IMG/VR virus record: IMGVR_UViG_3300017725_000001
Span: 32,001 to 96,000 of that record
DNA from: a virus
Strand: one strand, 5' to 3'
DNA: 64,000 nucleotides
Within the stretch, counting starts at the first letter, position 1. Each line of letters opens with the position of its first letter. Shown one piece after another: positions 30,371-51,746 of this stretch. The translations under genes were made by a program, and so were the position numbers. The notes under the pieces were generated by a model. The model made no database searches. It was not told the DNA's origin and was given only the letters and a program-made list of their open reading frames with translations.

Positions 30371-31039
30371 TTAGTTTCTTGCACAGTCAACACCCTTACG
30401 GTCTGTTGCTGGGTGAGCATATGGTAATTTGTCTAATAACCATTCTACTGTGTTTGCACGTAAATTGTCATCGAGACTTAATGCACACGATAAGTGATAT
30501 ACACCATCAACAAAAGAAAATCCATAATGAACTTTTCTTGTGTTAATTGCATACCATCTACGTGCTTCTGGTTTGAAAATTTTACCGTCAACTACAAAAT
30601 GAAATTCTGCAGAATTAGTATGATTTAAATGGCAAATCATTCTAAATGAATCGCCTGTTATTCCGTCTGGAGTTACTTGTCTCCACTTATCTCTATGTGG
30701 TGCAAGATAATCACCTTTGTTGTAAATTAAACAACCTAGTGATTCTGTGTGTGCTGGTAAATCCCAATTTTCTGGAATTACACTATATTCATGACCTTCT
30801 TTAGGACCATTATAATCGCCACTTACACGAGAACGTAGAATTTTTGCTGGGTCAGCATTCATAGCATCAATTTGCTCGACTGCGTTGTTAGGTACCCACG
30901 CATCTAATTCAATGATGTCACCTGCTGAACCAAAAAGGAAGTTTGTATCAAACGCCATATCAGTTGTCTTCGCTGGATTAAAAGTTAATCCTTCAGAAAC
31001 TGGAGTAGCGATGATTTTGTTTTGTTCTATTTTTACCAT
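30371..31039 (-). CDS. 2OG-Fe(II) oxygenase (AspH-like)
   Basis: LAPHRD (HxD) and INTRKVH. Start MVKIEQ with an AGGA RBS (the track start 31108 is probably too long). Confidence 0.75.
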   Translation of the reverse strand: MVKIEQNKIIATPVSEGLTFNPAKTTDMAFDTNFLFGSAGDIIELDAWVPNNAVEQIDAMNADPAKILRSRVSGDYNGPKEGHEYSVIPENWDLPAHTESLGCLIYNKGDYLAPHRDKWRQVTPDGITGDSFRMICHLNHTNSAEFHFVVDGKIFKPEARRWYAINTRKVHYGFSFVDGVYHLSCALSLDDNLRANTVEWLLDKLPYAHPATDRKGVDCARN

Positions 31040-31134
31040 GGTATTGTCCTTTTTAATTTTTAAAAAAAACTGTAGTCCATCTGAACTACAATGCATTGCA
31101 ATTTGCATTAGTATTTATCAGAAAGTACTAAAAG

Positions 31135-31190: not shown

Positions 31191-33620
31191 TTAGCTTAAT
31201 TCGCCAGTGTTTACAATTCTAATTGGAATGTAAATAAACTCTGCCGCTTTAGTTGGCTCAATAGCAACATCAATGTAAAATTCATTGGCGTCTATTCTAG
31301 CCGGCGTATTGTTTGTTGTATCACAAACTACTGCAAAGTCATATATTCCACGTTGTTGTAAAATATTAGCTAGGAAACCGTCAAATACTTGTTTAGCATT
31401 TGCTCTAGTACTAGTATCATTTGGCTCAAACAAGAACGGTCTTGAAATAACTGCAAAACGTTCTCTTAGGTAAGCTGTTAATCTAGCAACATTAACTCTG
31501 TCTAATGCTGAGGCACTCGCGTGTAATGATTTTTGTCCAAATACTACAACACCTTCTGCAGGAAATTTAGCTATTGGGTTTAATTTTTTATCATACATTG
31601 AGTCTCTTTGACCTTGAGTTACTGCTAGTGACACAAACTCATCTTCGCTATTTAAGTATCCAACATTTGATGCATTTTGTACAACACCACGTGTTAGACC
31701 AGCTGGTGCAAACCATTGAAATGATACATTGTCACTATACGCATAAGTGTATAATGCAATGTGTGATGCTGGTGCTACAACGTTATCACCTGTTACAGGA
31801 TTAGTTGTGTATGCGTGTGGATAATAAACTGCTGAGTAAGTATTCTTTGTTACTAGGCCGTTTTCACCATTTGTAGTTGCGCCTGTTCCTTGAATCCAAG
31901 ATACTGCTTCTGTTGGATTTAAACGGAATGGTGCATCAACAATGATAAATGCAGTTTCATCTCTATTACTGTTCAATGAAACCATTTCATCATATAGTTC
32001 AGGATAACCTGGTGCCGCAAGTAAACGGAATTGAATTGTATCTTGTTGTAGTTCACTTACACCTGCCGAAGCCTGCATAGCTGTTACTACTACTTTTCTT
32101 TGTGCAATTCTACCAAATGAACCACTGCCATCTGCTTGATTACCTGCTTTGTTTCTCCATTTCCAAGTTGTAGTTAGAGCTGAATTATATTCTCTAACTG
32201 TTCCACCTGATCTACACATATTAAGTCCAGTAATTCCTACTGGGTGTGTTAATGGATCTGGTGCACCTGCTAATAGAGTTGCTTCAAATGCGCCTGCTGT
32301 CGTATCATTTGCAGTAATATCTCCAAATACTACGCCTGCCGCAGTTGATTGATCTGCTTTATCTTTTGCTACCCAAGCAGTACCATTGTGTCTGTAAATT
32401 ACAGGATACCCTGAAGCATCTGTATCTATCCAATAGTCACCTGCTGATAAAGAACCGCCTGAACCATCTGTTGTTGGTGCAGTTGTAACGTATTGTACGT
32501 CTGATGCTCTTTGCCATTTTTGTGTTCCTGAATCGCTTACTACTTCGTAAACTGCTAATTCATTTACATCTGGGTCAAACCATAGTGTACCATTTACTGG
32601 TGCACCTACTGGTTCTGTTGTTTTAACTTCCATTACATAACCGCCAGTTGCTACTGATGGATCTGTTGCAACCTGATCAAAACCATTTCCAATACTATCA
32701 TATCTGTTTAAGATTAATGATGCATCAGTTGAAGAAATATCCATCCAGATATCTCCATCAATTAATGTTCTTGCAGTTGCTGAAGTACCGTCTGCAAATA
32801 CATCCGAAGTTGTACCTGCCGGTGCTGTGTCTTGTACATAAACTACACTTTGTTTAACAAAGTTACCTGCTGATGTTGTAAATAATTGAACGTCTAAGTC
32901 CAATCCACCACCTGGTTTTGTAGTTTTAATCCAAACGTCACCATCTGATGGTGAACTTGGTGCTGAATAGTGTGGTGCCATTGTTGGGCCAAAGTTATCA
33001 ACCCATGCTCCGCCACTAGCCGCAAAATATTTTATTGTTGTTCCAGCTGAACCATTTTCTAATACAACGTGATATCCACCTGTTACTACTGACGCAGTAG
33101 GTGCACCACTTGATGTAATTTCAACTGTTGGAGTTTGTTCTTCCCAAGCAGTATTTGCAGTACTATACTTCCAAATACCAAATGATGAAGTTGAAGGTTT
33201 AATCCAGTATGTTAAATTTGCTGGATCTCCTGTTGGCTCTGATGAAGCCGGTCTTAATTCATTTAAATCAACATCTGCACGTGAGATGTATGCCGCTGAG
33301 GCTTGACCTAAGAATGAGTATGCCGCTAATAAACCATATTCGTTAGTTTCATCACCTTGTTGTACTGTTCCACTTACCTTACGGAAGTCAACATTACCAA
33401 AGTATTGAGTTAATTCTCTCTGTGATGTAACTAATATTGGCTTGTTTGCATTAGCAGACTTTGTATATTTCGCTATGCCGTCTGACTCAGTAAGGGTTGG
33501 ATCAACCTTGTCCTGACCAGTGGCAATAAACAACATTGGAACCGTACCAGCGCCTGCTGGGCCGTATACTGATTCGTCTGTTACTGTTACCTGTACGCCA
33601 GGTGAAACAAGATTTGCCAT
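31191..33620 (-). CDS. Contractile tail sheath protein (gp18-like)
   Basis: LVSPGV, WFAPAGLTRG, LNPI, GQKS...SALDRVNVARL, FEPND and PTKAAEFI. Confidence 0.95.
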   Translation of the reverse strand: MANLVSPGVQVTVTDESVYGPAGAGTVPMLFIATGQDKVDPTLTESDGIAKYTKSANANKPILVTSQRELTQYFGNVDFRKVSGTVQQGDETNEYGLLAAYSFLGQASAAYISRADVDLNELRPASSEPTGDPANLTYWIKPSTSSFGIWKYSTANTAWEEQTPTVEITSSGAPTASVVTGGYHVVLENGSAGTTIKYFAASGGAWVDNFGPTMAPHYSAPSSPSDGDVWIKTTKPGGGLDLDVQLFTTSAGNFVKQSVVYVQDTAPAGTTSDVFADGTSATARTLIDGDIWMDISSTDASLILNRYDSIGNGFDQVATDPSVATGGYVMEVKTTEPVGAPVNGTLWFDPDVNELAVYEVVSDSGTQKWQRASDVQYVTTAPTTDGSGGSLSAGDYWIDTDASGYPVIYRHNGTAWVAKDKADQSTAAGVVFGDITANDTTAGAFEATLLAGAPDPLTHPVGITGLNMCRSGGTVREYNSALTTTWKWRNKAGNQADGSGSFGRIAQRKVVVTAMQASAGVSELQQDTIQFRLLAAPGYPELYDEMVSLNSNRDETAFIIVDAPFRLNPTEAVSWIQGTGATTNGENGLVTKNTYSAVYYPHAYTTNPVTGDNVVAPASHIALYTYAYSDNVSFQWFAPAGLTRGVVQNASNVGYLNSEDEFVSLAVTQGQRDSMYDKKLNPIAKFPAEGVVVFGQKSLHASASALDRVNVARLTAYLRERFAVISRPFLFEPNDTSTRANAKQVFDGFLANILQQRGIYDFAVVCDTTNNTPARIDANEFYIDVAIEPTKAAEFIYIPIRIVNTGELS

Positions 33621-38573: not shown

Positions 38574-39776
38574 TTATTTTCCGGAAAAATGCTTGAAATT
38601 ATCGTAGTAAAGAGCTAGTGTTGCCCATATAGCATCGGGATAAAGATTAGTATATTTGTTTCCAGTCTTTTTATAGTGTTCCCATACAGTTTCACTCATA
38701 TCCATATCTGTATATTCTTTCCAGAAACTTGTATCGTCTCTGTTAGATAATGCATAGTGATGTAATATGTAATCACTGTTTTCTTTCCAAACTCTGTTGA
38801 TCATTCTATTGTAAGTTTTGGCGTCATATTCGCGTTTTAAGCACTCTACAAGCGTCGTAATACTATATTGTATCATAAACAATGCATTTGATTCTAATGG
38901 GTCAATAAAGCCTTGACTAAGCCCTATAGCAACCGTATTGCCTGCCCATGGATTCTTTAACCAATTAGGATTCCATTTAATATTACGTGGTTGTTTACCC
39001 ATAAATGGTGTTAAGTCTTTTGTATAATCTTTAAACTCTTCTAGTGCATCTTCATTACTAATATGCTTATCACTATAAACATAACCAGTACCAATACGAG
39101 AAGTTAATCCAATTTTAAATTGCCAACCATAATCACGTGCTATACTTCTAGTATATGGAATATGTTCATCTAGCTCAAACGGACAAACCCAAGCACTATT
39201 AACTAAATGCTTTTCATGTATTTCTACTTCAGTTTTATCGTTGACAAATTGTCTACGGAAACCTGTACAATCAATATATAAGTCATACCCCTCTGGTCTT
39301 TTATCAAGTGTTTGTACAATATGTTTTACATTTTTACAATTTTCTTTTACTATACGCCCTGCTTCTTCTGCGTGTAAATGATATGCTACTGCTCTCCAAC
39401 CTTTGGCATCATACAGTTCTTCGTTGATTTGATGTTTTGTAACTTCACCTGCTTTGTACTTCTTATACCAATCTTCAAATACATTATCATCATTAAACCA
39501 AAATGTAAATTTAAATTCATCACCATCTGGTTTATCCCAACCTTGTTTTATATTACCATGTTTGTGTATAGCATCACATTTTGACATCCATGTTTCTTCT
39601 TGCATACCAAAACTATCAAAAAAAGTTTTGATCATAGGAAGTGTACTTTCACCTACGCCAACTATTGGTATATCACTACTTTCAATAAGTGTTATATCAT
39701 AATCTGGAAAGTTATGCTCTATGTAACCAGCGGCCCACCATCCTGTAGTTCCGCCTCCTATGATGCAAATCTTCAT
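38574..39776 (-). CDS. Flavin-dependent (tryptophan-halogenase family) halogenase
   Basis: IIGGGTTG, VGEST, candidate catalytic Lys in AIHKHG, IDCTGF, GWQFKI and FIDPLES. Confidence 0.9.
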   Translation of the reverse strand: MKICIIGGGTTGWWAAGYIEHNFPDYDITLIESSDIPIVGVGESTLPMIKTFFDSFGMQEETWMSKCDAIHKHGNIKQGWDKPDGDEFKFTFWFNDDNVFEDWYKKYKAGEVTKHQINEELYDAKGWRAVAYHLHAEEAGRIVKENCKNVKHIVQTLDKRPEGYDLYIDCTGFRRQFVNDKTEVEIHEKHLVNSAWVCPFELDEHIPYTRSIARDYGWQFKIGLTSRIGTGYVYSDKHISNEDALEEFKDYTKDLTPFMGKQPRNIKWNPNWLKNPWAGNTVAIGLSQGFIDPLESNALFMIQYSITTLVECLKREYDAKTYNRMINRVWKENSDYILHHYALSNRDDTSFWKEYTDMDMSETVWEHYKKTGNKYTNLYPDAIWATLALYYDNFKHFSGK

Positions 39777-43822: not shown

Positions 43823-44254
43823 ATGATTACAGCCGCAGGATGTATATTTCTTAGCACAGATACAGGAAGAGTTATGCTTCAACACCGTAGTGGTGAAGTT
43901 AACCACCCTAGAACGTGGGGCTTCTTTGGAGGAAAATCAGATAATAATGAAAAACCAATTGATACGTTGTATAGAGAAATTGAAGAAGAACTAGGATTAG
44001 TTCCGGATATTAAAAAAGTTATACCTATTAATAAATTCACAAGTCCTAACAAAAAATTTATATACCATAGTTTTGTTGTAACTGTAGAAGAAGAGTTTAT
44101 TCCTATACTGAATAATGAAAGTGATGGTTATTGTTGGGTTAAAATAGGTAATTGGCCTAGACCATTACACCCTGGTGCTAAAATACAATGTAATTCAAAA
44201 CAATTTATAAAGAAAATAAAAACTGTGTTCGAGCAACACTCTACGAAGTTATAA
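43823..44254 (+). CDS. NUDIX hydrolase
   Basis: Nudix box GGKSDNNEKPIDTLYREIEEELG; LHPG. Confidence 0.9.
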   Translation: MITAAGCIFLSTDTGRVMLQHRSGEVNHPRTWGFFGGKSDNNEKPIDTLYREIEEELGLVPDIKKVIPINKFTSPNKKFIYHSFVVTVEEEFIPILNNESDGYCWVKIGNWPRPLHPGAKIQCNSKQFIKKIKTVFEQHSTKL

Positions 44255-44954
44255 TACCCATTTCTTTTCTAGTAAACATTTCATCTAAGAAAGCATTATA
44301 AACTTCTTCATTATCATTTTTGTGTATTTTATCAAAATCTGGATCAAGTTCCATTATTTCTGATATAGTTCTTATATCTGTGGATAAGCCTAATTGTGTT
44401 ACTGCTTCTTTCCAACCAGCATAACGTTTTAAATCAAAGAAATCTTTTATATTATTATTTTCTATACCAATTTGTTGCATCATTCTATCATCATCAACAT
44501 ACCACGTATAATTTGGAAAGTATATATCCCAACCGCCTACGTGATGCCACCATTCAAAACATTCTTTATCTTTTTCATAAAACGACCACATAGTAGCTTT
44601 TGGAAACATTTGTCTTAGTTGAGGTAAGTGATATGCAAACCAATGACTCTTAATAATCTTCTTTCCTGTATCCCAATCAGCAAACGGTTCTTTAAATTCT
44701 TTTAATACTTCTTCTTTAGATAGTGTGTTAAGTTTATCAAACTTATGTCCATATTGATTATGTGGACCCCAATATGCACCCCTATGCCAACCAATTACTT
44801 TACCTTCTGCATCTCTTTTTTCATAAACACGTCTAGGTGTGTTATCAGTCATATTAATATCTTTACATATAAGACTTAATAAACGTATAACTCCACTCCA
44901 TCTAGAACCTGGAGCTCCTGTTACTATAATTAGATCTTCACCTTGATAATTCAT
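44241..44954 (-). CDS. P-loop protein, sulfotransferase/kinase-like
   Basis: IIVTGAPGSRWSG and IIKSHWF. Confidence 0.6.
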   Translation of the reverse strand: MNYQGEDLIIVTGAPGSRWSGVIRLLSLICKDINMTDNTPRRVYEKRDAEGKVIGWHRGAYWGPHNQYGHKFDKLNTLSKEEVLKEFKEPFADWDTGKKIIKSHWFAYHLPQLRQMFPKATMWSFYEKDKECFEWWHHVGGWDIYFPNYTWYVDDDRMMQQIGIENNNIKDFFDLKRYAGWKEAVTQLGLSTDIRTISEIMELDPDFDKIHKNDNEEVYNAFLDEMFTRKEMGIITS

Positions 44955-45747
44955 TAATAATTTTCTCTGTTAAATATTTGTGTGTTTTTGGACCAGGATG
45001 TGTTTGATCTCTAGCCAGGTCTATCATTTCTTCTTGTGTGTAATATATTGATTTAATATCTTTTGGCTCGTAATCATAAAACCAATGCTTTCGTCTTTCA
45101 TTAGGTTGTAGTATAAAATACTTTGAATTTGGAAATGTTTGTTTTAATGCTAGTTCGAACATTTTAAATATTTTACCATTACTGTTTTTAAAAGTTTCTC
45201 TTACTTCTTTTACTACTTTTGTATCTTTTTCTTTTGGTATCCAATAACGCATAAGCCAATTGGTATCATTTATACCCCAGAAGTCATTTAATATAATATA
45301 CTTTGGATTTAAGTTTGTCAAGTCAAATAACTTATCTGCCATATCTGTAAGAGTATCAAAGTCACTTAAATTGAAATGATCTAATCCAAGTTCTTTTGAA
45401 ACTAAATAAGGTATTGATTTTTCATATGGTAATCCTGTACCAAGTAGTAAACTTGATCCTGCAAATAGTATTCCTATATTGGTTAAATCATCTGGTCCTC
45501 TATATCCATATTTGTTCCATGTATACTCAAAGTCTAATTTTGGATCGTTATCCCAATCAAGTTCTTGTATAGCACCATGTGTAAAATGATCTGATCCACC
45601 TTCACCTACTTTACACTTGTTTCCTGTATCATGTCTTCCGTAATACTTTGTACTAGTATTTGGTTCTCTTATTTGTTTTTCAGGCCTTAGTGTTTGTTTG
45701 TAGTGATATCGTGAGTCTTGTTTATCTGGAAAGTCTTTTTCTATCAT
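44938..45747 (-). CDS. SGNH/GDSL-like hydrolase or acyltransferase
   Basis: YTWNKYGYRG, FAGSS (GxS) and C-terminal ARDQTHPG (DxxH). Confidence 0.7.
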   Translation of the reverse strand: MIEKDFPDKQDSRYHYKQTLRPEKQIREPNTSTKYYGRHDTGNKCKVGEGGSDHFTHGAIQELDWDNDPKLDFEYTWNKYGYRGPDDLTNIGILFAGSSLLLGTGLPYEKSIPYLVSKELGLDHFNLSDFDTLTDMADKLFDLTNLNPKYIILNDFWGINDTNWLMRYWIPKEKDTKVVKEVRETFKNSNGKIFKMFELALKQTFPNSKYFILQPNERRKHWFYDYEPKDIKSIYYTQEEMIDLARDQTHPGPKTHKYLTEKIINELSR

Positions 45748-46697
45748 ACTTTTATAATTCTGTTAGGATCTGGGTTATCAATCATATGTTGTACTTTATC
45801 ACTTACAAAGCCTGTAAATTGAAATGTTACTCTTGGAGTAAATCCAAAGTTGGCTGTACCATGTGGCATATTACACCAATCGTAAGTTATACAAGTACCT
45901 GCTTTATATCCTTGATGGTAAGTGTTACCAAACTGCCATACATGACCATAATCCCAATCTTGTAAATGAACTAGGAATCTTCTTAATTTTAAAGGATTCT
46001 TGTCTGCACCTGCATCAGTCCATACTTTACGCCAACCTGGTCTTGCATATCTCATTTGTTGATCAATATGTATAGGTGTAACTTGTCCTAATTTTTGTAT
46101 ATGCATTCTTGACTGATGTACTTCTACTTCTAATGTATCAATCATTCGTAATAATATTTCATACTCTGGTGCAGGGTTACGTTGAGCATAATAATTCTCT
46201 TCACCTTCTTTAAACCTACTTCTTACAATCATATCATGATACATACTACTTACATCTTCTTTACCAGATGCATTTAGAACGTCTTGTATCTCACCGTCAT
46301 GCAAGTCTTTGTCTTGTTTGCTTAAATTTCTATTTCTATAGTTTCCTATAGTCATTTCTTTTGAATGTTCTACTGCATATCTAACTGCTGGTTCAAAGTC
46401 TCCTTCAAATCTACAAGGTATTACAAAGGTTTCTTCGTTTGGATCTGCAAATGGATCAAAATGCCAATTAGCACGTAATTTATTATGTTCCCATCTACTT
46501 GGAACCCCATCTACTTTAAAGATGTTATCCATCTTCTTATGTTCTTCCATTTGTTCGTCACTATACATTACTTTTTCGTATGACTCGTCTTGTTGCGTTA
46601 CACCTTCTTGTTTTGTATGTTCTGCTTTTTTAACTGCATCAACTAAATCATCAATTTTTTCACCACTATAATAATTTTTATCTGTTTTTTCTTTCAT
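45744..46697 (-). CDS. 2OG-Fe(II) oxygenase
   Basis: TPIHID...MPHGTANFG-TPRVTFQFTG. Confidence 0.8.
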   Translation of the reverse strand: MKEKTDKNYYSGEKIDDLVDAVKKAEHTKQEGVTQQDESYEKVMYSDEQMEEHKKMDNIFKVDGVPSRWEHNKLRANWHFDPFADPNEETFVIPCRFEGDFEPAVRYAVEHSKEMTIGNYRNRNLSKQDKDLHDGEIQDVLNASGKEDVSSMYHDMIVRSRFKEGEENYYAQRNPAPEYEILLRMIDTLEVEVHQSRMHIQKLGQVTPIHIDQQMRYARPGWRKVWTDAGADKNPLKLRRFLVHLQDWDYGHVWQFGNTYHQGYKAGTCITYDWCNMPHGTANFGFTPRVTFQFTGFVSDKVQHMIDNPDPNRIIKV

Positions 46698-47284
46698 TAT
46701 CTTTCCTTACAGTTTGGTAACGAATTTATAATTGTTTTAAGGTTAGCTTCAGTTAAATATAAGCTCATTAATATATGATATATTCCACCTTCCATTGCAA
46801 AACTTCCATGTTGCTTACGAGTATTTAATACATACGGAACACCTGGTTTAAATTCTACACGTCTTTCTTCGTATAAAAAATTCCATTGATGTATTTCTGT
46901 TTTATTAAGTGGAATAAAAATTCTTATTTGTGGATTAAATCTAAATGCGTCTCTGTGCATAGTAAAGAAGCTACCAGCTTCTAATTTTACTGCTCTGCAT
47001 CTAGCTAGGTCTGACCATTGTGTAAAAAAATCATATAATGCAGTACATTTTAATAAGTTTTCATTTACTGGTTGATCTTGCTCGTGTTTATTTTTATCTT
47101 CAAGTCCAAGTCCTTTTTCTGGACCTGTTAAGTTAATACCTTGTTTACCGTTAGGTCCTTTTTCCCATTCTAATCTCTCAAGTTCTTTTATTACTTGATC
47201 TGAATCTAACTTCTGGTTTAATTCTACTATATCGCCATAACTATTCAGTAGGGTTAATAGATTTATTGGATTTATATCGTTCAT
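46697..47284 (-). CDS. AspH-like 2OG-Fe(II) oxygenase
   Basis: FFTMHRD...RIFIPL...LNTRKQHG. Confidence 0.8.
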   Translation of the reverse strand: MNDINPINLLTLLNSYGDIVELNQKLDSDQVIKELERLEWEKGPNGKQGINLTGPEKGLGLEDKNKHEQDQPVNENLLKCTALYDFFTQWSDLARCRAVKLEAGSFFTMHRDAFRFNPQIRIFIPLNKTEIHQWNFLYEERRVEFKPGVPYVLNTRKQHGSFAMEGGIYHILMSLYLTEANLKTIINSLPNCKER

Positions 47285-47534
47285 TTTTTGGTATCTCTCT
47301 TAATTTGTCCATTTTAGCAATATGTTCTATTCTCATAATTTGATGATACATTTTAATAACACCTTTAGGTGCATCTGCCTTCCATATCCAAGGAAATAAT
47401 CCGTGTACTAAACTTTTAAATGCTATTACTAATAAAGACCATGTATTTTGAATACTATGCCACAAGTGATAAAAGTAGCCCCAACCTGTTTCTACTTTTA
47501 AATGATGAATTGCATTTCGAAACCATTGTGTCAT
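47241..47534 (-). CDS. DUF6356-like small protein
   Basis: HL-ETGWGYF-HL...LVHGLFPW. Confidence 0.6.
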   Translation of the reverse strand: MTQWFRNAIHHLKVETGWGYFYHLWHSIQNTWSLLVIAFKSLVHGLFPWIWKADAPKGVIKMYHQIMRIEHIAKMDKLREIPKNERYKSNKSINPTE

Positions 47535-48626
47535 TTACTGGTCAGTGACCCTCTTTTTCATACTAGCAACAAATTGTTCACGTAACCATTCAAAGTCATT
47601 AATTTTAGTTAATGCTTCGTTATCGTCTTTGTTTGCTATTCCATATTCCTTGCCTTCTAATGCACCTTTTAAACAGTAACGACCAAAACGAGCTCCAACA
47701 TCTGTGGTACACCATGTTTCTAATCTTTCATCTGTTTCTTTTTGTTTTTGGTTAGGATTAACTGAACTTGCTAGTTTAACACATTCACGGAATGCACTAC
47801 GCCATGTTCTATATGGATCTTTATTAAATCTTGTAATGTTTGATACATCTGCAATAGGTTGATAAAAACTTGCACCAGTTGTATAATCTGGTAATTCGTG
47901 CCCTAGCTCTAATAATTGAACTTTTGGAAATAATTTAACACCACCATATCCATACTCTAATCCATTTACTGGATTTCTAGCACTCCATACATATGTTGTA
48001 TTTTTTCTTTTACTCATTGGTGGAATATAGTCAAAACTAAAGTCACCCATAATGTCTGCATCTGCATCAACAATATAAACCATTTCAGTTTTTGCTAATT
48101 CACCTACACGTTTATGAGCATTACCAATACCTTCAACGTTCTTTACGTGTTGTGCATCTTTAAATCTGTTTTTTAACTTTTGAAAATTCTCATCTGCTTC
48201 AGCTTCGTGGTAACTAATCATAAAGATATCAAATTCTGCAACGTGAAAACTTGCTACCAATTTATTTTCTACCTCACCATGAGAAACTCCGTTAGTAGGA
48301 ACTAATCTAACATCTCCCCAACTTACTGGTCTGTTTGTTCTTTTAACTACTCTAGGAAACGTGTGAATAACTTTTTTACCTAAATCACTTGGCCTATAGT
48401 GCCAAGGAAATTTTGGGTTAACTTCAATTTCATCAAACACAACCCAAGCCATGTCTGCTTCATCTTTATACTTTTTTGCTAAATCTAAAATATCGTCTTC
48501 ATCTTTTAATCTTATTGGTGTTTTAATAATTGGGTAACTTCCAAACATAAATTTTTTGAGTCTATCCCAAGGTGTGACAACGTTCTGTCCTGTAAATTCT
48601 CTTTGGTTATTTTTTATATTAATCAT
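47535..48626 (-). CDS. GT-A-fold glycosyltransferase
   Basis: DIFMISYHE, YIVDADA (DxD), YGYGGVKLF and WRSAFRECVKL. Likely start MINIK. Confidence 0.8.
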   Translation of the reverse strand: MINIKNNQREFTGQNVVTPWDRLKKFMFGSYPIIKTPIRLKDEDDILDLAKKYKDEADMAWVVFDEIEVNPKFPWHYRPSDLGKKVIHTFPRVVKRTNRPVSWGDVRLVPTNGVSHGEVENKLVASFHVAEFDIFMISYHEAEADENFQKLKNRFKDAQHVKNVEGIGNAHKRVGELAKTEMVYIVDADADIMGDFSFDYIPPMSKRKNTTYVWSARNPVNGLEYGYGGVKLFPKVQLLELGHELPDYTTGASFYQPIADVSNITRFNKDPYRTWRSAFRECVKLASSVNPNQKQKETDERLETWCTTDVGARFGRYCLKGALEGKEYGIANKDDNEALTKINDFEWLREQFVASMKKRVTDQ

Positions 48627-49269
48627 TGCAATCGCCTTTAACTGTAAATGCACGTGTTCCTATATGTGCTATCTTGTCACTCAGTTCGTGACTTACATAT
48701 ACTTCATATCCTGCCTCATTAGCTCTTGTACAAAAATATACGTCCTCTCCTATTAAACTTGAATAATCCTCAGAGTATTCAATCTTATAAAAAGGCGAAG
48801 ATAGTTTTTTATAAACTTCTCTTTTTACTAACATCATTCCACTTCCAACAGCCCATACTTTTTCTACGCCTGTACCAGTAAAAACTCTGTCATCTAAATT
48901 GTTCTTACTTCTAAAAGCAACAGGTCTATGTGGTGGAACTCTTGTTGAATAATTTCCAGCAACAATATCTTTGTCTGCCGCTAATAATATATTTAGGGTA
49001 TCTACTGGAAAGTTCATATCAGAATCAATCCACATAATGTGGGTACAATTTGTTTCTAATGCTTCAGATACTAACTGTTGTCTTTGCATAGTAACTTCAC
49101 TACCCATATTAAAATGGAGAGAAGTTGCTAATCCAGCCTCACCACACTTTCGTTGAAGCATAGCAAGACTGTAAGCAAAAACCGCAGTAACATTATCTCG
49201 CACAGGAACGCAAATAGCTACATTAGCGGAGTTGTTTTTTTTATGATAAAATGATGGTGTTGATACCAT
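48619..49269 (-). CDS. Glycosyltransferase family 2
   Basis: ICVP, WIDSDM (DxD), GSGMMLV and GEDVYFC. Confidence 0.88.
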   Translation of the reverse strand: MVSTPSFYHKKNNSANVAICVPVRDNVTAVFAYSLAMLQRKCGEAGLATSLHFNMGSEVTMQRQQLVSEALETNCTHIMWIDSDMNFPVDTLNILLAADKDIVAGNYSTRVPPHRPVAFRSKNNLDDRVFTGTGVEKVWAVGSGMMLVKREVYKKLSSPFYKIEYSEDYSSLIGEDVYFCTRANEAGYEVYVSHELSDKIAHIGTRAFTVKGDCND

Positions 49270-49274
49270 TCAGA

Positions 49275-49694
49275 TTATTTTGCAGATGCTAAATCTGCTT
49301 GAAGTTCAGCTTCAATTTGTTGAACCTCATAATTTAATTGTTTAGCAATACTTGTAGCTTCTTTAACCGATGCCTTAAAAGCTTCATCTGGCAATGCAAC
49401 CATATAAGCCATATGCTCTGGTTGTACCTTACCAATTGTAAGAATATCAATTGCCGCTAGTTTTGCTAATCTGTGTACCCAATATTCTTCTTCAGTGGAT
49501 TCAATATCTTTTGTAAGATCTTCTACATTATGTTCTGCAGAAAAATCTTTATAAATTGCTTCTAGTACTGGAAGATCTGGGTGTGATGTTTCACGAGCTT
49601 TCATTAGCTCTTGTGTAAGTACTTGTGCCTTTCTGGCTGGAGACGGGTGTGCTCCAAGTACGAACGTTTCAATCTCGTATCGAGTTCTAATCAT
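49275..49694 (-). CDS. Helical hypothetical protein (fibre-tip chaperone/adaptor candidate)
   Basis: TRYEIETFV...EEEYWVHRLAKLAAIDIL; CAGGAG RBS before MIRTR. Confidence 0.6.
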   Translation of the reverse strand: MIRTRYEIETFVLGAHPSPARKAQVLTQELMKARETSHPDLPVLEAIYKDFSAEHNVEDLTKDIESTEEEYWVHRLAKLAAIDILTIGKVQPEHMAYMVALPDEAFKASVKEATSIAKQLNYEVQQIEAELQADLASAK

Positions 49695-49735
49695 TGTTTT
49701 CTCCTGTGTTGAGTTTACTCTACTATTAGTCATAG

Positions 49736-49802
49736 TATTTATATAGTGTATTTATTTTACATTAAAGTAAGCACGTTGTCAAGTATAAACAACGTGCTTA
49801 CT
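49736..49802 (-). promoter_or_regulatory. Hairpin overlapping a sigma70 promoter, followed by a late promoter
   Basis: 14-bp stem (49766-79/49789-802); TTGACA(49777-82)-17 nt-TAAAAT; TATAAATA at 49736-43. Confidence 0.7.
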
Positions 49803-49823
49803 AAAATTATTTTATACAATTTC

Positions 49824-50012
49824 TTATGGGTGACCACCAGTTGCTGACGGATACTGCCAACCACCAAAGGTAGCTGAAAGTTTGATATTTGACGTCACTG
49901 ACGGTGATATTGTGTTACCTAATTGGCTCAGTGATACTGTACCACTTAATCCAAAATAGTTACGCACAGTTGACATTGAAATTGTTGAACCGGTTGCTGG
50001 TAATGTCGACAT
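49824..50012 (-). CDS. 62-aa mini fibre-tip protein (gp38-adhesin N-domain-like)
   Basis: TLPATGSTISMSTVRNYFG...SLS resembles the attachment domain that follows S74 fibres. CAGGAG RBS and its own late promoter. Confidence 0.7.
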   Translation of the reverse strand: MSTLPATGSTISMSTVRNYFGLSGTVSLSQLGNTISPSVTSNIKLSATFGGWQYPSATGGHP

Positions 50013-50102
50013 ATTATTCTCCTGTCAAATTGTAATTAACGTTAATTACAAGCATATTGCTTGTAGTATTATTTATCTATATAGCTCGTGTTATATAGCA
50101 GT

Positions 50103-51746
50103 TTATAATCTTTTCTTTAATTCTTCTATCTCTTTTTGTTGCTCTTTTATAGCTTCTATTAAAATACCTACTATATTACCATATGCTACTGATTTCATTC
50201 CATCTGGAGCTGTATGTACTACTTGAGGCAATATTTCTTCTACTTCTTGTGCTATTACACCAGTACTATTTCTACCATCTTTTTCAAAATGTACACCACG
50301 TAATTTACTTACTGTATCTACTGCATTTGTAATAGTTTCAATATTTCTTTTTAATCTTTTATCTGAGTATGCTGTAACATCACCAGTTGCTGTAAAGTCA
50401 CCTGTGTAACTACCACTCATTAAAAATTCTGTTCCACTTAATGATAATCCATTGCCTGCTGTATATGTTGTGTTTGTATCAGTTGTAACATATCCTGCAC
50501 CATTTGCTAATTGATTATTGTCTGTTGGAATTGTTGGTTTATTACTAAGGTCGCTATAATCACCTGACGTTGCTACTGTTGCAAAACTAGGAACACCTGA
50601 TAAAGAGCTATAGTTTCCATCAAATACTTCACTTGCATTAGCTAGTTCTACCCAGTTACCTGCATGAGCAAAATATCCTTTGCCTGTTGCGTGTACATGA
50701 GCAAACATTCCATGATATGTACTTGCACTTGGAAGATCACCTATTGTTGCATAGACGTTAGCAAATAAAACTTTATTACCGTTCATATCTAAATCTGAAT
50801 TTGTAATTGTTCCACTTGCGTTTGCTGTTATTCTAGAATCTACTCTAGCATCTGTATAATATAAATTAGAGCCTTCTGCTAAATCTCCTGTATCTTTAGT
50901 ACCTAACCAAGTATCTGCTGTACTTGTAAAATCTGCTGTAGCTAATTTTGTTGCTATTGAAGTTGTTATTGTTGTTGAGAAGTTTGCATCGTCACCAAGT
51001 GCCGCCGCTAATTCATTTAATGTATCTAATGTTGTTGGAGCTGTATCAACTAAATTTGATATTGCTGTATCTGTATATGTTTCATATGCTGTAGTTATTG
51101 CTACTTCTCTAGTATCTGTATAAGTGTTAGCTGTACTAATTGCATCTGCTTCAGCTGTATCTGTATAAGTTTGATATGCTGTAGTTATACTTGCTGTAGC
51201 TGTAGCAATTTCTGTATCTGTATATGAGTTTGCCGCTGTACTACCACTTGATGTAGATGACGCTATAGCTGATGTATATGCTGTAGTAATTGCTGTTTCA
51301 CGTGTATCTGTATATGCTTTTGCATCTACTAGTGTGTTTGCTATTGCTGTAACATTATTATTAATTGCTGTTTCGTTGTTTATAATAGCTGTAGCATTAT
51401 TTGATATCGCTGTAGCATTATTTGTAATGGCTGTAGCATTATTTGATATCGCTGTAGCATTATTTGATATTGCTGTAGTATTATTTGATATCGCTGTAGC
51501 ATTAGATGCAATATTTGCTGTATTAGTAGCAATGTTTGCTGTATTAGTATTAACACTTGCTGTTAAACTTGCATTTGTTGCATTTTGAGATGGTATCTCA
51601 ACATTCTGTAATGTAACTGTAGTACCATCATGCGTGAACACATCTACTCCATTAATTTGTAACTGATCTAAATTACTGTTTGTTAATAATGTTGCACTAG
51701 GATCTGCGTCGTGTAATACTATTTTGTTTCCAATTTTAAATGCCAT
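50103..51746 (-). CDS. Tail fibre with a C-terminal peptidase S74 intramolecular chaperone
   Basis: Heptad stalk, APTTLDTLNELAAALGDD, and TAYSDKRLKRNI...GVIAQEVE...LIEAIKE. Confidence 0.9.
   Translation of the reverse strand: MAFKIGNKIVLHDADPSATLLTNSNLDQLQINGVDVFTHDGTTVTLQNVEIPSQNATNASLTASVNTNTANIATNTANIASNATAISNNTTAISNNATAISNNATAITNNATAISNNATAIINNETAINNNVTAIANTLVDAKAYTDTRETAITTAYTSAIASSTSSGSTAANSYTDTEIATATASITTAYQTYTDTAEADAISTANTYTDTREVAITTAYETYTDTAISNLVDTAPTTLDTLNELAAALGDDANFSTTITTSIATKLATADFTSTADTWLGTKDTGDLAEGSNLYYTDARVDSRITANASGTITNSDLDMNGNKVLFANVYATIGDLPSASTYHGMFAHVHATGKGYFAHAGNWVELANASEVFDGNYSSLSGVPSFATVATSGDYSDLSNKPTIPTDNNQLANGAGYVTTDTNTTYTAGNGLSLSGTEFLMSGSYTGDFTATGDVTAYSDKRLKRNIETITNAVDTVSKLRGVHFEKDGRNSTGVIAQEVEEILPQVVHTAPDGMKSVAYGNIVGILIEAIKEQQKEIEELKKRL
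51388..51503. repeat. 21-bp tandem repeat (about 5.5 units) encoding NNATAIS heptads
   Basis: GCTGTAGCATTATTTGATATC units start at 51388, 51409, 51430, 51451, 51472 and 51493. Confidence 0.9.

Follow-up and report, generated by a model that had tools for sequence, protein, structure and literature searches.

A conserved 62-residue putative anchor module with linked candidate glycosyltransferases at the tail-fibre locus of an uncultured marine jumbo myovirus

We analysed a 64,000-nucleotide stretch of virus DNA (hereafter the window; positions 32,001 to 96,000 of the IMG/VR record IMGVR_UViG_3300017725_000001) and in it the genes that follow the tail-fibre gene fib547. An uncultured marine jumbo myovirus carries the locus, which lies distally in its tail-fibre module, at the end. 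Directly behind the fibre gene lies p62, which encodes 62 residues, then a trio of genes (p152, p216 and p372) for a helical protein and two candidate glycosyltransferases (GTs), and then a cassette of five further genes (p97, p195, p317, p269 and p237). Our preferred reading, to which we give a little less than an even chance, is that p62 may be a fibre-associated anchor module, that the helical protein and the GT pair linked to it probably glycosylate fibre proteins, and that the cassette would be a separate, mobile tailoring module. The reality of the genes, the protein folds, the synteny and the modularity are observed and are set out below.

From these we infer binding, glycosylation and its target as follows. 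p62 would be a small virion-associated protein, probably with its own late promoter, that lacks a protein domain for receptor binding and docks as a cap or adaptor on a fibre, in most cases the S74 fibre of the gene just before it. The trio would be an ancient unit linked to the gene for the p62 module; glycosylation of fibres is proposed because the helical protein and the two GTs are persistently linked to that module. The GT pair would O-glycosylate fibre proteins (p62 itself or Ser/Thr-rich fibres) in the cytoplasm before assembly, with p152 as a possible chaperone or targeting subunit. The cassette (a DUF6356 protein, two hydroxylases, an SGNH-like and a sulfotransferase-like protein, joined elsewhere by a halogenase) would act on a substrate independent of p62. 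The original prediction, made from the letters of the window, had joined all of these genes in one virion-decoration system; decoration of p62 or of the fibre is pure inference.

The p62 gene, its module and the linked trio

p62 is a real gene and is separately organised. Its relatives are encoded at 67 viral loci and comprise 48 distinct protein sequences with a nearly fixed consensus, and they are under purifying selection (median dN/dS to the window of 0.14 at a median dS of 1.2, 50 comparisons). All relatives are metagenomic, and the counts of distinct contexts given here and below are not phylogenetically independent. The motif ATAAATA, which resembles a T4 late promoter, is found 52-95 nt upstream of p62 in 47/48 distinct contexts, and a long hairpin whose stems differ between lineages follows the stop codon in 48/48; both counts were made on related sequences and without a shuffle control. 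These motifs agree with the original prediction of a separately promoted and terminated gene, and its description of the product as very Ser/Thr-rich is borne out (34%, 21/62 residues, against 9-25% in the neighbours).

In 33 of 43 distinct p62-p152 intergenic sequences of relatives TTGACA-N16/17-TAnnnT is kept, and in these, as far as motif matches indicate, the p62 terminator overlaps a sigma70-type promoter of p152. In this nesting (window 49754-49801, relatives L004-L115) the -35 box TTGACA falls in the loop and 3' arm of the hairpin, and the arrangement is maintained although the stem sequences vary. Across the whole window TTGACA-N16-18-TAnnnT occurs 15 times against an expectation of 5.2 +/- 2.3, with 14/15 sites on the minus (coding) strand and most of them just upstream of gene starts; host-type promoters are apparently used at many sites by this phage. 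A second late-type motif, TATAAATA, precedes p152 in the window and is not conserved in most relatives.

In 4/4 runs both p62 and p152 are covered by RNA-library contigs identical to the window; these give neither an expression ranking nor transcript ends. Two such contigs, from two studies, both span approximately 49791-50081 with upstream ends that include the promoter motif, which is a weak hint of a discrete p62 RNA, and a further contig runs across both p62 and p152. Some runs leave parts of the cassette without RNA contigs, which proves nothing. A fold-back contig (window 49207-50051; run X16, record 9) carries the same 845 bases on both strands in a 1668-base record spanning p152 and p62, and is probably an assembly or library artefact.

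Residues 5-46 of p62 match positions 25-67 of phrog_30374 (E 4.6e-5), a family also matched by a protein at locus L069 (1.2e-9), by P0125 (6.3e-11) and by P0120 and P0118. Searches of p62 against Pfam at E<=0.1, GP38 included, and against NCBIfam gave no match, and the label 'gp38-like' in the original prediction is not upheld. A tblastn search against phages was likewise empty, as was a word-indexed search for longer homologues; these were later found by an exhaustive profile search, in which a profile of 36 sequences run against 1.84 billion representatives recovered 45 proteins at E<=1e-3. Stand-alone forms of 36-89 aa account for 24 of the 45. About 20 are longer, and most of these carry the module (~55 aa) at the N-terminus followed by unrelated C-terminal parts: PD40 propeller repeats in P0099 (679 aa), an F5/8 type C domain in P0124, a PKD-like domain in P0125 and Gly-rich regions in P0118 and P0123. 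The L069 protein, 262 aa and Gly-rich, is the product of the last gene of a tail module on an unrelated contig. Because a constant N-terminus is joined to interchangeable, ligand-binding C-termini, the module is likely to be the N-terminal anchor of receptor-binding proteins, in agreement with the earlier description of p62 as an attachment module without a binding domain. Some relatives (L023, L046, L066, L067, L084-L088, L104, L105 and L110) reach 73-85 aa through a Gly/Asp/Pro-rich C-terminal extension (e.g. ...GVDPTTDEPTHP), and the 'tail' after FGGWQNPN is therefore variable.

The fibre upstream was correctly called an S74 fibre. Peptidase_S74 (PF13884) matches residues 461-511 of fib547 (E 1.3e-13, 51.4 bits against a cut-off of 22), as do 38 PHROG tail-fibre families the protein; the position of the SDKRLKRN motif was located and the mature end is predicted at residue 460. 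In 42/56 distinct close contexts the end of an S74 domain is found less than 400 nt before p62, and the distant lineages L198/L200, L208, L209/L210 and L212 likewise have such a domain immediately upstream. A complex prediction of three copies of fib547 316-460 with three of p62 (alignment A7) scored 0.13 against a mark of 0.32, was run without controls and is evidence neither way.

The order p62, p152, p216, p372, NUDIX, gp15, gp14 was found in every relative with enough sequence. Moreover, 10 loci from approximately four further lineages (L197/198/200, L208, L209/210 and L211-214) keep an S74-type fibre end, a p62 module, p152-, p216- and p372-like genes, NUDIX, gp15 and gp14, at identities to the window of 32-36% for gp15, 40-42% for gp14, 47-51% for p62, 40-44% for p216 and 29-45% for p372. 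The p62 slot in these lineages is filled by a protein of 51-60 aa, 177 aa or 675 aa (the last being module plus propeller), and the p372-like gene encodes 359-880 aa. The genes for p62 module and p152 are separated by 10-55 nt in L198, L209 and L212 and by 233 nt in L208. Phage PA5oct, of similar neck-gene identity, keeps gp14, gp15 and NUDIX, but the block from p62 to p372 is absent. As read from these comparisons, the p62-p152-p216-p372 block is old.

The start of p152 was corrected to M14 of the listed open reading frame (ORF; 49694), a leader and ribosome-binding site before MS/IRTR being conserved in relatives. The protein matches phrog_1409 (function unknown; E 2.6e-13) and shares 28-30% identity with the C-terminal parts of Syn19_045 (L001) and S-RIM2 SWTG_00016 (L002), two proteins of ~280-293 aa inside cyanomyovirus tail-fibre clusters. 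Near Syn19_045 lies Syn19_049, which has an ALK/LTK-type glycine-rich domain; p62 showed no similarity to this Gly-rich protein.

The original call of two glycosyltransferases stands for p372 by its GT-A core, and for p216 as a GT2/Anp1-like protein whose window copy falls short of the Pfam threshold. In PHROG, p216 matches phrog_1574 (1.2e-29) and glycosyltransferase families (1.8e-5 and 0.0019), and its L198 relative reaches Anp1 (29.9 bits against a cut-off of 28.8). For p372 the start was corrected to M10 (48626), and an AlphaFold2 (AF2) model built with 27 relatives has a pLDDT of 79.4. Foldseek returned 14 matches at E<=1e-3, all of glycosyltransferase type (probability 0.97-1.0, best E 1.4e-4), and VIA placed the core at Z 8.7-11.2 (top rmsd 3.0 over 135 residues). 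Structural neighbours include B4GALNT1, STIV A197, WrtF, the peptide glycosyltransferases ThuS/SunS, PBCV-1 A64R and GalNAc-T2. D187-A188-D189 is invariant in 27 sequences and presumably forms the catalytic DxD. Sequence and profile searches of the PDB with p372 gave nothing significant, and a pattern scan of 185,579 species' genomes (A5), a pattern-limited and weak test, found no relatives in cellular genomes. Among isolate phages a p372 relative occurs only in RsoM2USA, a Ralstonia jumbo phage (L116), whose genes 348 and 350 are paralogues of the GT core together with the C-terminal domain (47% and 29% identity); they belong to a long operon of hypothetical genes, next to a weak radical-SAM match.

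Distribution and content of the cassette

The five genes p97-p237 were found in 10 of 46 distinct p372-NUDIX intervals, always all five and over 3.3 kb. None of them is held by the remaining 36, in 33 of which p372 nearly abuts NUDIX while three contain unrelated inserts of 287-845 nt; these 36 variants all carry p62, and it is conserved in them to the same degree. In other viral contigs (L139-L160) the five genes are found again, with order and orientation shuffled and with p317 at 48-69% identity, and a p237-like/p317-like pair is kept in contigs more distant still. No S74 domain, p62, p152 or p216 was found near the cassette in the other contigs, the sole exception among the genes of the block being a p372-like fragment at the edge of L148. 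Nor were other window genes found within ~9 kb of it there, apart from a homologue of the ORF at 30371-31108 and occasional single weak matches. Since the cassette is all-or-none here and is found elsewhere without p62, its function is, by this distribution, independent of p62, and it appears to be a horizontally mobile tailoring module. The single eight-gene operon of the original prediction thus gives way to a conserved trio plus a five-gene accessory cassette, and of the predicted co-occurrence of mini-tip and enzymes only the part concerning the trio, present in all relatives with enough sequence, survives.

A flavin-dependent halogenase is encoded at 38574-39776, 5 kb from the cassette in the window and behind SbmA and RpiB. 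It has homologues inside or beside the cassette in L139-L141, L143 and L153; that of L140 is 76% identical and lies between p195-like and p317-like genes. The suggestion that halogenase and cassette share a pathway fits this arrangement in the other contigs. A 245-aa ORF of the window (30371-31108, minus strand) also has homologues, 24-45% identical, inside or beside the cassette elsewhere (L140-L144, L150, L152, L154-L157 and L160). The match overlaps the p195-like gene in some contigs and is a separate gene in others, and the ORF could encode a paralogue of p195 or an additional member of the cassette.

Table 1. Features of the locus in window coordinates
Feature	Position	Strand	Basis
fib547, tail fibre with C-terminal S74 intramolecular-chaperone domain	50103..51746	-	Pfam, PHROG
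ATAAATA, T4-late-promoter-like motif upstream of p62	50070..50076	-	consensus match only
p62, 62-aa stand-alone putative anchor module, phrog_30374-like, Ser/Thr-rich	49824..50012	-	
12-bp stem-loop, terminator-like, directly 3' of p62	49767..49801	-	sequence
Candidate sigma70-type promoter TTGACA-17-TAAAAT, -35 box in hairpin loop and 3' arm	49754..49782	-	
TATAAATA, late-type motif 42 nt upstream of corrected p152 start	49736..49743	-	sequence
p152, 'EEEYW' helical protein, 139 aa after start correction	49275..49694	-	phrog_1409
p216, GT-A/GT2-like glycosyltransferase (Anp1-like), DSD motif	48619..49269	-	Pfam, PHROG
p372, GT-A core 128-270, unassigned N-terminal beta domain, C-terminal helical domain, 363 aa	47535..48626	-	
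p97, DUF6356, first cassette gene	47241..47534	-	Pfam PF19883 E 2e-7, 31.5 bits vs 24.4
p195, probable AspH-like (cupin) 2OG oxygenase	46697..47284	-	motif, relatives' PF05118 matches
p317, 2OG-Fe(II) oxygenase, prolyl/aspartyl-hydroxylase-like fold	45744..46697	-	AF2 model
p269, SGNH-like hydrolase/acyl-esterase candidate	44938..45747	-	conserved blocks
p237, sulfotransferase-like, last cassette gene, convergent with NUDIX	44241..44954	-	Atlas look-up

p97, which is always paired with p195, is DUF6356-like as first read (Table 1). Two 2-oxoglutarate (2OG)-Fe(II) oxygenases had also been called; the fold settles this for p317, and for p195 the call is supported indirectly, by an invariant motif and matches of some relatives. 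All 27 sequences of the p195 family keep the HxD...H residues H110, D112 and H159, and PF05118 (Asp_Arg_Hydrox) is matched by four of the 27 (best E 3.4e-6), the window protein itself giving no match. Pairwise profiles showed no relation of p195 to p317 or to two cyanophage 2OG oxygenases, and PDB searches with two p195 profiles returned nothing significant. The AF2 model of p317 (31 sequences) has a pLDDT of 93.5, and H210, D212, H279 and R289 are invariant in the 31 sequences. Foldseek gave 148 matches at E<=1e-3, and all matches listed are 2OG oxygenases or cupins. The top VIA neighbours are effectively tied: proline 3-hydroxylase (Z 11.2), PHD2 (10.8), and proline cis-4-hydroxylase and AspH (~10). 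TET is represented by one Foldseek entry, at rank 35, and by none of the 50 VIA rows, at the head of which stand prolyl hydroxylases. No p317 was found in isolate phage records, and no relatives in cellular genomes by a pattern scan (A6) of the same 185,579 species' genomes and with the same pattern limits.

The last two assignments of the original prediction, SGNH-like for p269 and sulfotransferase-like for p237, are supported indirectly. The SGNH blocks are defined as GxS (I), GxN (III) and DxxH (V). In p269 the blocks AG(S/G)S, GxN(D) and DQTH are conserved (7 sequences, alignment A2), and a weak PDB-profile match (E 0.16) aligns block I with an SGNH esterase, while Pfam and NCBIfam gave no match. 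The sulfotransferase family is recognised by the 5'-phosphosulfate-binding and 3'-phosphate-binding motifs (5'-PSB and 3'-PB), which bind 3'-phosphoadenosine 5'-phosphosulfate (PAPS). A protein-language-model look-up of p237 (Atlas) scored 0.95, with 26 of the 30 nearest named clusters in sets with Sulfotransfer_3/_1/_4; GAPGSRWSG and RKxMGII are invariant and YHLP is conserved. p237 gave no match in Pfam, NCBIfam or the PDB and, among isolate records, occurs only in two named 'Marine virus AG-345-D19'.

Competing explanations

Several findings weigh against a trio that glycosylates fibres carrying an anchor-like p62. The sigma70-type promoter that precedes the enzyme trio in 33/43 close relatives is typical of early genes and, set against the late-type motif of p62, would suit enzymes acting on the host just as well as on the virion. 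With 6 occurrences in the window against 12.2 expected, TATAAATA shows no enrichment, so that the label 'late' is an analogy drawn from T4. In 14/56 close contexts the 400 nt before p62 contain no S74 domain end. The window p216 scores 25.1 bits against Pfam Anp1 (E 1.4e-5), below the cut-off of 28.8, and polysaccharide and teichoic-acid transferases stand among the GT-A neighbours of p372 at equal Z. Lastly, the order of NUDIX, gp15 and gp14 is conserved too, so that the synteny could be that of a frozen structural module and not a sign of shared function.

Taken to its end, that last point means that the genes have no functional link and that each serves separately in a structural region of conserved order, as the terminator and promoter that separate p62 from the trio in the window's lineage would also allow. 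We consider this unlikely, for PA5oct keeps gp14, gp15 and NUDIX without the block, and p62-module and p152 genes are 10-55 nt apart in L198, L209 and L212. The most serious competitor, though still somewhat improbable, is remodelling of the host envelope, in which the GT pair, joined in cassette-bearing strains by the hydroxylases and the SGNH-like and sulfotransferase-like enzymes, would modify lipopolysaccharide (LPS), capsule or lipids for superinfection exclusion or against re-adsorption of progeny, with p62 an unrelated fibre accessory. The promoter before p152 and a cassette that is mobile and independent of p62 and fibres speak for it, as do TarS/TarP, RmlT, WrtF and the chondroitin/heparosan synthases among the neighbours of p372. 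PF05118, matched by some p195 relatives, presumably also contains lipid hydroxylases such as LpxO, which we count on the same side. Marine-phage glycosyltransferases are usually interpreted in this way, according to passages of PMC12801897. Against it, the linkage of p62 to the GTs survives deep divergence with tight gaps in distant lineages, and the pattern scans found no p372 or p317 relatives in the 185,579 species' genomes.

Modification of phage bases against restriction by the GTs and oxygenases is highly improbable. There is precedent for such action by phage GTs and TET/JBP-type 2OG enzymes (as parts of PMC12619734 relate), and a TET structure and AlkB are among the lower Foldseek matches of p317; the top neighbours are nevertheless prolyl and aspartyl hydroxylases and not TET/JBP, and the genes lie in the fibre module. 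PF00303 (thymidylate synthase/hydroxymethylase) was found neither in the source record nor in the 205-222-kb records of two relatives, which at 34-60% completeness is a weak argument. Tailoring of a peptide or small molecule, in the manner of a ribosomally synthesised and post-translationally modified peptide (RiPP), would have the cassette and halogenase, perhaps with SbmA, modify a peptide or metabolite, with p62 or a separate substrate as precursor. The halogenase homologue embedded in the cassette in L139-L141 and L143 favours this, as does the closeness of the p317 fold to free-proline, prolyl and aspartyl hydroxylases. SbmA, encoded nearby in the window, is known as a lasso-peptide importer. 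Clusters of sulfotransferase, aspartyl beta-hydroxylase and glycosyltransferase genes beside bacterial lasso-peptide genes, listed in a table of PMC10040529, are a lead only. Conversely, p62 is equally conserved in the 36/46 variants without cassette, is absent near the cassette elsewhere, and its module is the N-terminal domain of large, structural-looking proteins; furthermore no leader/core, RiPP recognition element (RRE)/PqqD, protease or cyclase was found among the nine proteins with Pfam, PHROG and NCBIfam. The RiPP-style scheme of the original prediction is left without a hallmark, and as a whole this explanation is distinctly unlikely, while a peptide or small-molecule pathway for the cassette and halogenase is a fair rival. 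We hold as slightly more doubtful still a fibre tip built chemically, in which an anchor-only p62, as a receptor-binding protein pared down to its docking part, would cap the S74 fibre after chaperone release, the p152-GT-GT set would glycosylate p62 and, in strains with the cassette, the glycan or peptide would then be hydroxylated, acyl-edited, sulfated or halogenated, the group so made, and not a protein domain, being host ligand or shield. We retain, tentatively, fibre glycosylation by the trio beside a separate cassette.

Setting and comparison with known systems

The source record is a 124-kb contig with a CheckV completeness estimate of 34%. The contigs of close relatives measure 205-222 kb and are estimated to be only 56-60% complete, so that the full genome is probably well over 300 kb. 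Adjoining the locus are gp14-like and gp15-like neck genes (PF16724; phrog_11196), whose nearest isolate relatives are those of the jumbo phages Phosso (37%), PA5oct (36.5%) and Atu_ph07 (34%). The stretch is present in seawater and marine metagenome runs, and its GC content is 31-35% across the locus. All nine genes are on the minus strand, and those downstream of p62 abut or overlap. A blastn search of the 7.5-kb stretch against phages gave short fibre-repeat matches only. Over the nine proteins Pfam returned S74 for fib547, DUF6356 for p97 and sub-threshold Anp1/GT2 for p216, with no match for the other six; NCBIfam returned nothing except a sub-threshold GrpE match of p152.

If the GT pair does glycosylate fibres, phage virion glycosylation would be extended to the tail fibres of abundant marine jumbo phages, and the 62-aa acceptor candidate with three genes would make a small, expressible test system. 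The p62 module is a previously unannotated N-terminal putative anchor and a handle for finding receptor-binding proteins in uncultured phages, and the five- or six-gene cassette (without or with halogenase) adds a new candidate to the auxiliary pathways of marine viruses. In the literature surveyed, tail-fibre glycosylation is only suggested, in one paper and for archaeal viruses, and nothing on this system was found.

Among known systems, gp37-gp38 of the T-even phages, where the gene for a tip adhesin or chaperone comes after that of its fibre, likewise has a small gene directly after a fibre gene and an attachment-type N-terminus, and the Gly-rich C-termini of P0118, P0123 and the L069 protein recall it. 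p62, however, has neither a GP38 match in Pfam nor a C-terminal domain, it covers only the N-terminal quarter of the 197-position phrog_30374 profile, and the fibre upstream has its own S74 chaperone. p317 shares the double-stranded beta-helix (DSBH) fold and the HxD...H triad with proline 3-hydroxylase (P3H), PHD2 and AspH (Z 10-11.2), although identity is only 9-16% and p317 has no Pfam match. PBCV-1 A64R (Z 8.7-8.8) and STIV A197 (Z 10.0) superpose on the core of p372 over ~130-138 residues, and p372 has a DxD; identity is only 6-13%, the Z scores are tied with those of many non-viral GT-A enzymes, and p372 has additional N- and C-terminal domains. Both A64R and A197 are tied to capsid glycosylation, in a eukaryotic and an archaeal virus respectively, and their targets are capsid proteins, unlike the fibre candidates here.

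The nearest experimentally shown analogue of the role proposed for the trio would be the virion glycosylation of mycobacteriophages. There, glycans on the C-termini of capsid and tail-tube subunits have been shown by experiment (Freeman et al. 2023, as cited in a part of PMC12619734). The candidate acceptors differ, being here a fibre or a 62-aa anchor-only protein known from genes alone, and so do the GT families, between which no sequence match was sought. Nevertheless, as far as the relevant part of PMC12619734 describes that system, the two have in common phage GT genes beside structural genes and a proposed Ser/Thr-rich acceptor, and the mycobacteriophage glycan is thought to act as a shield.

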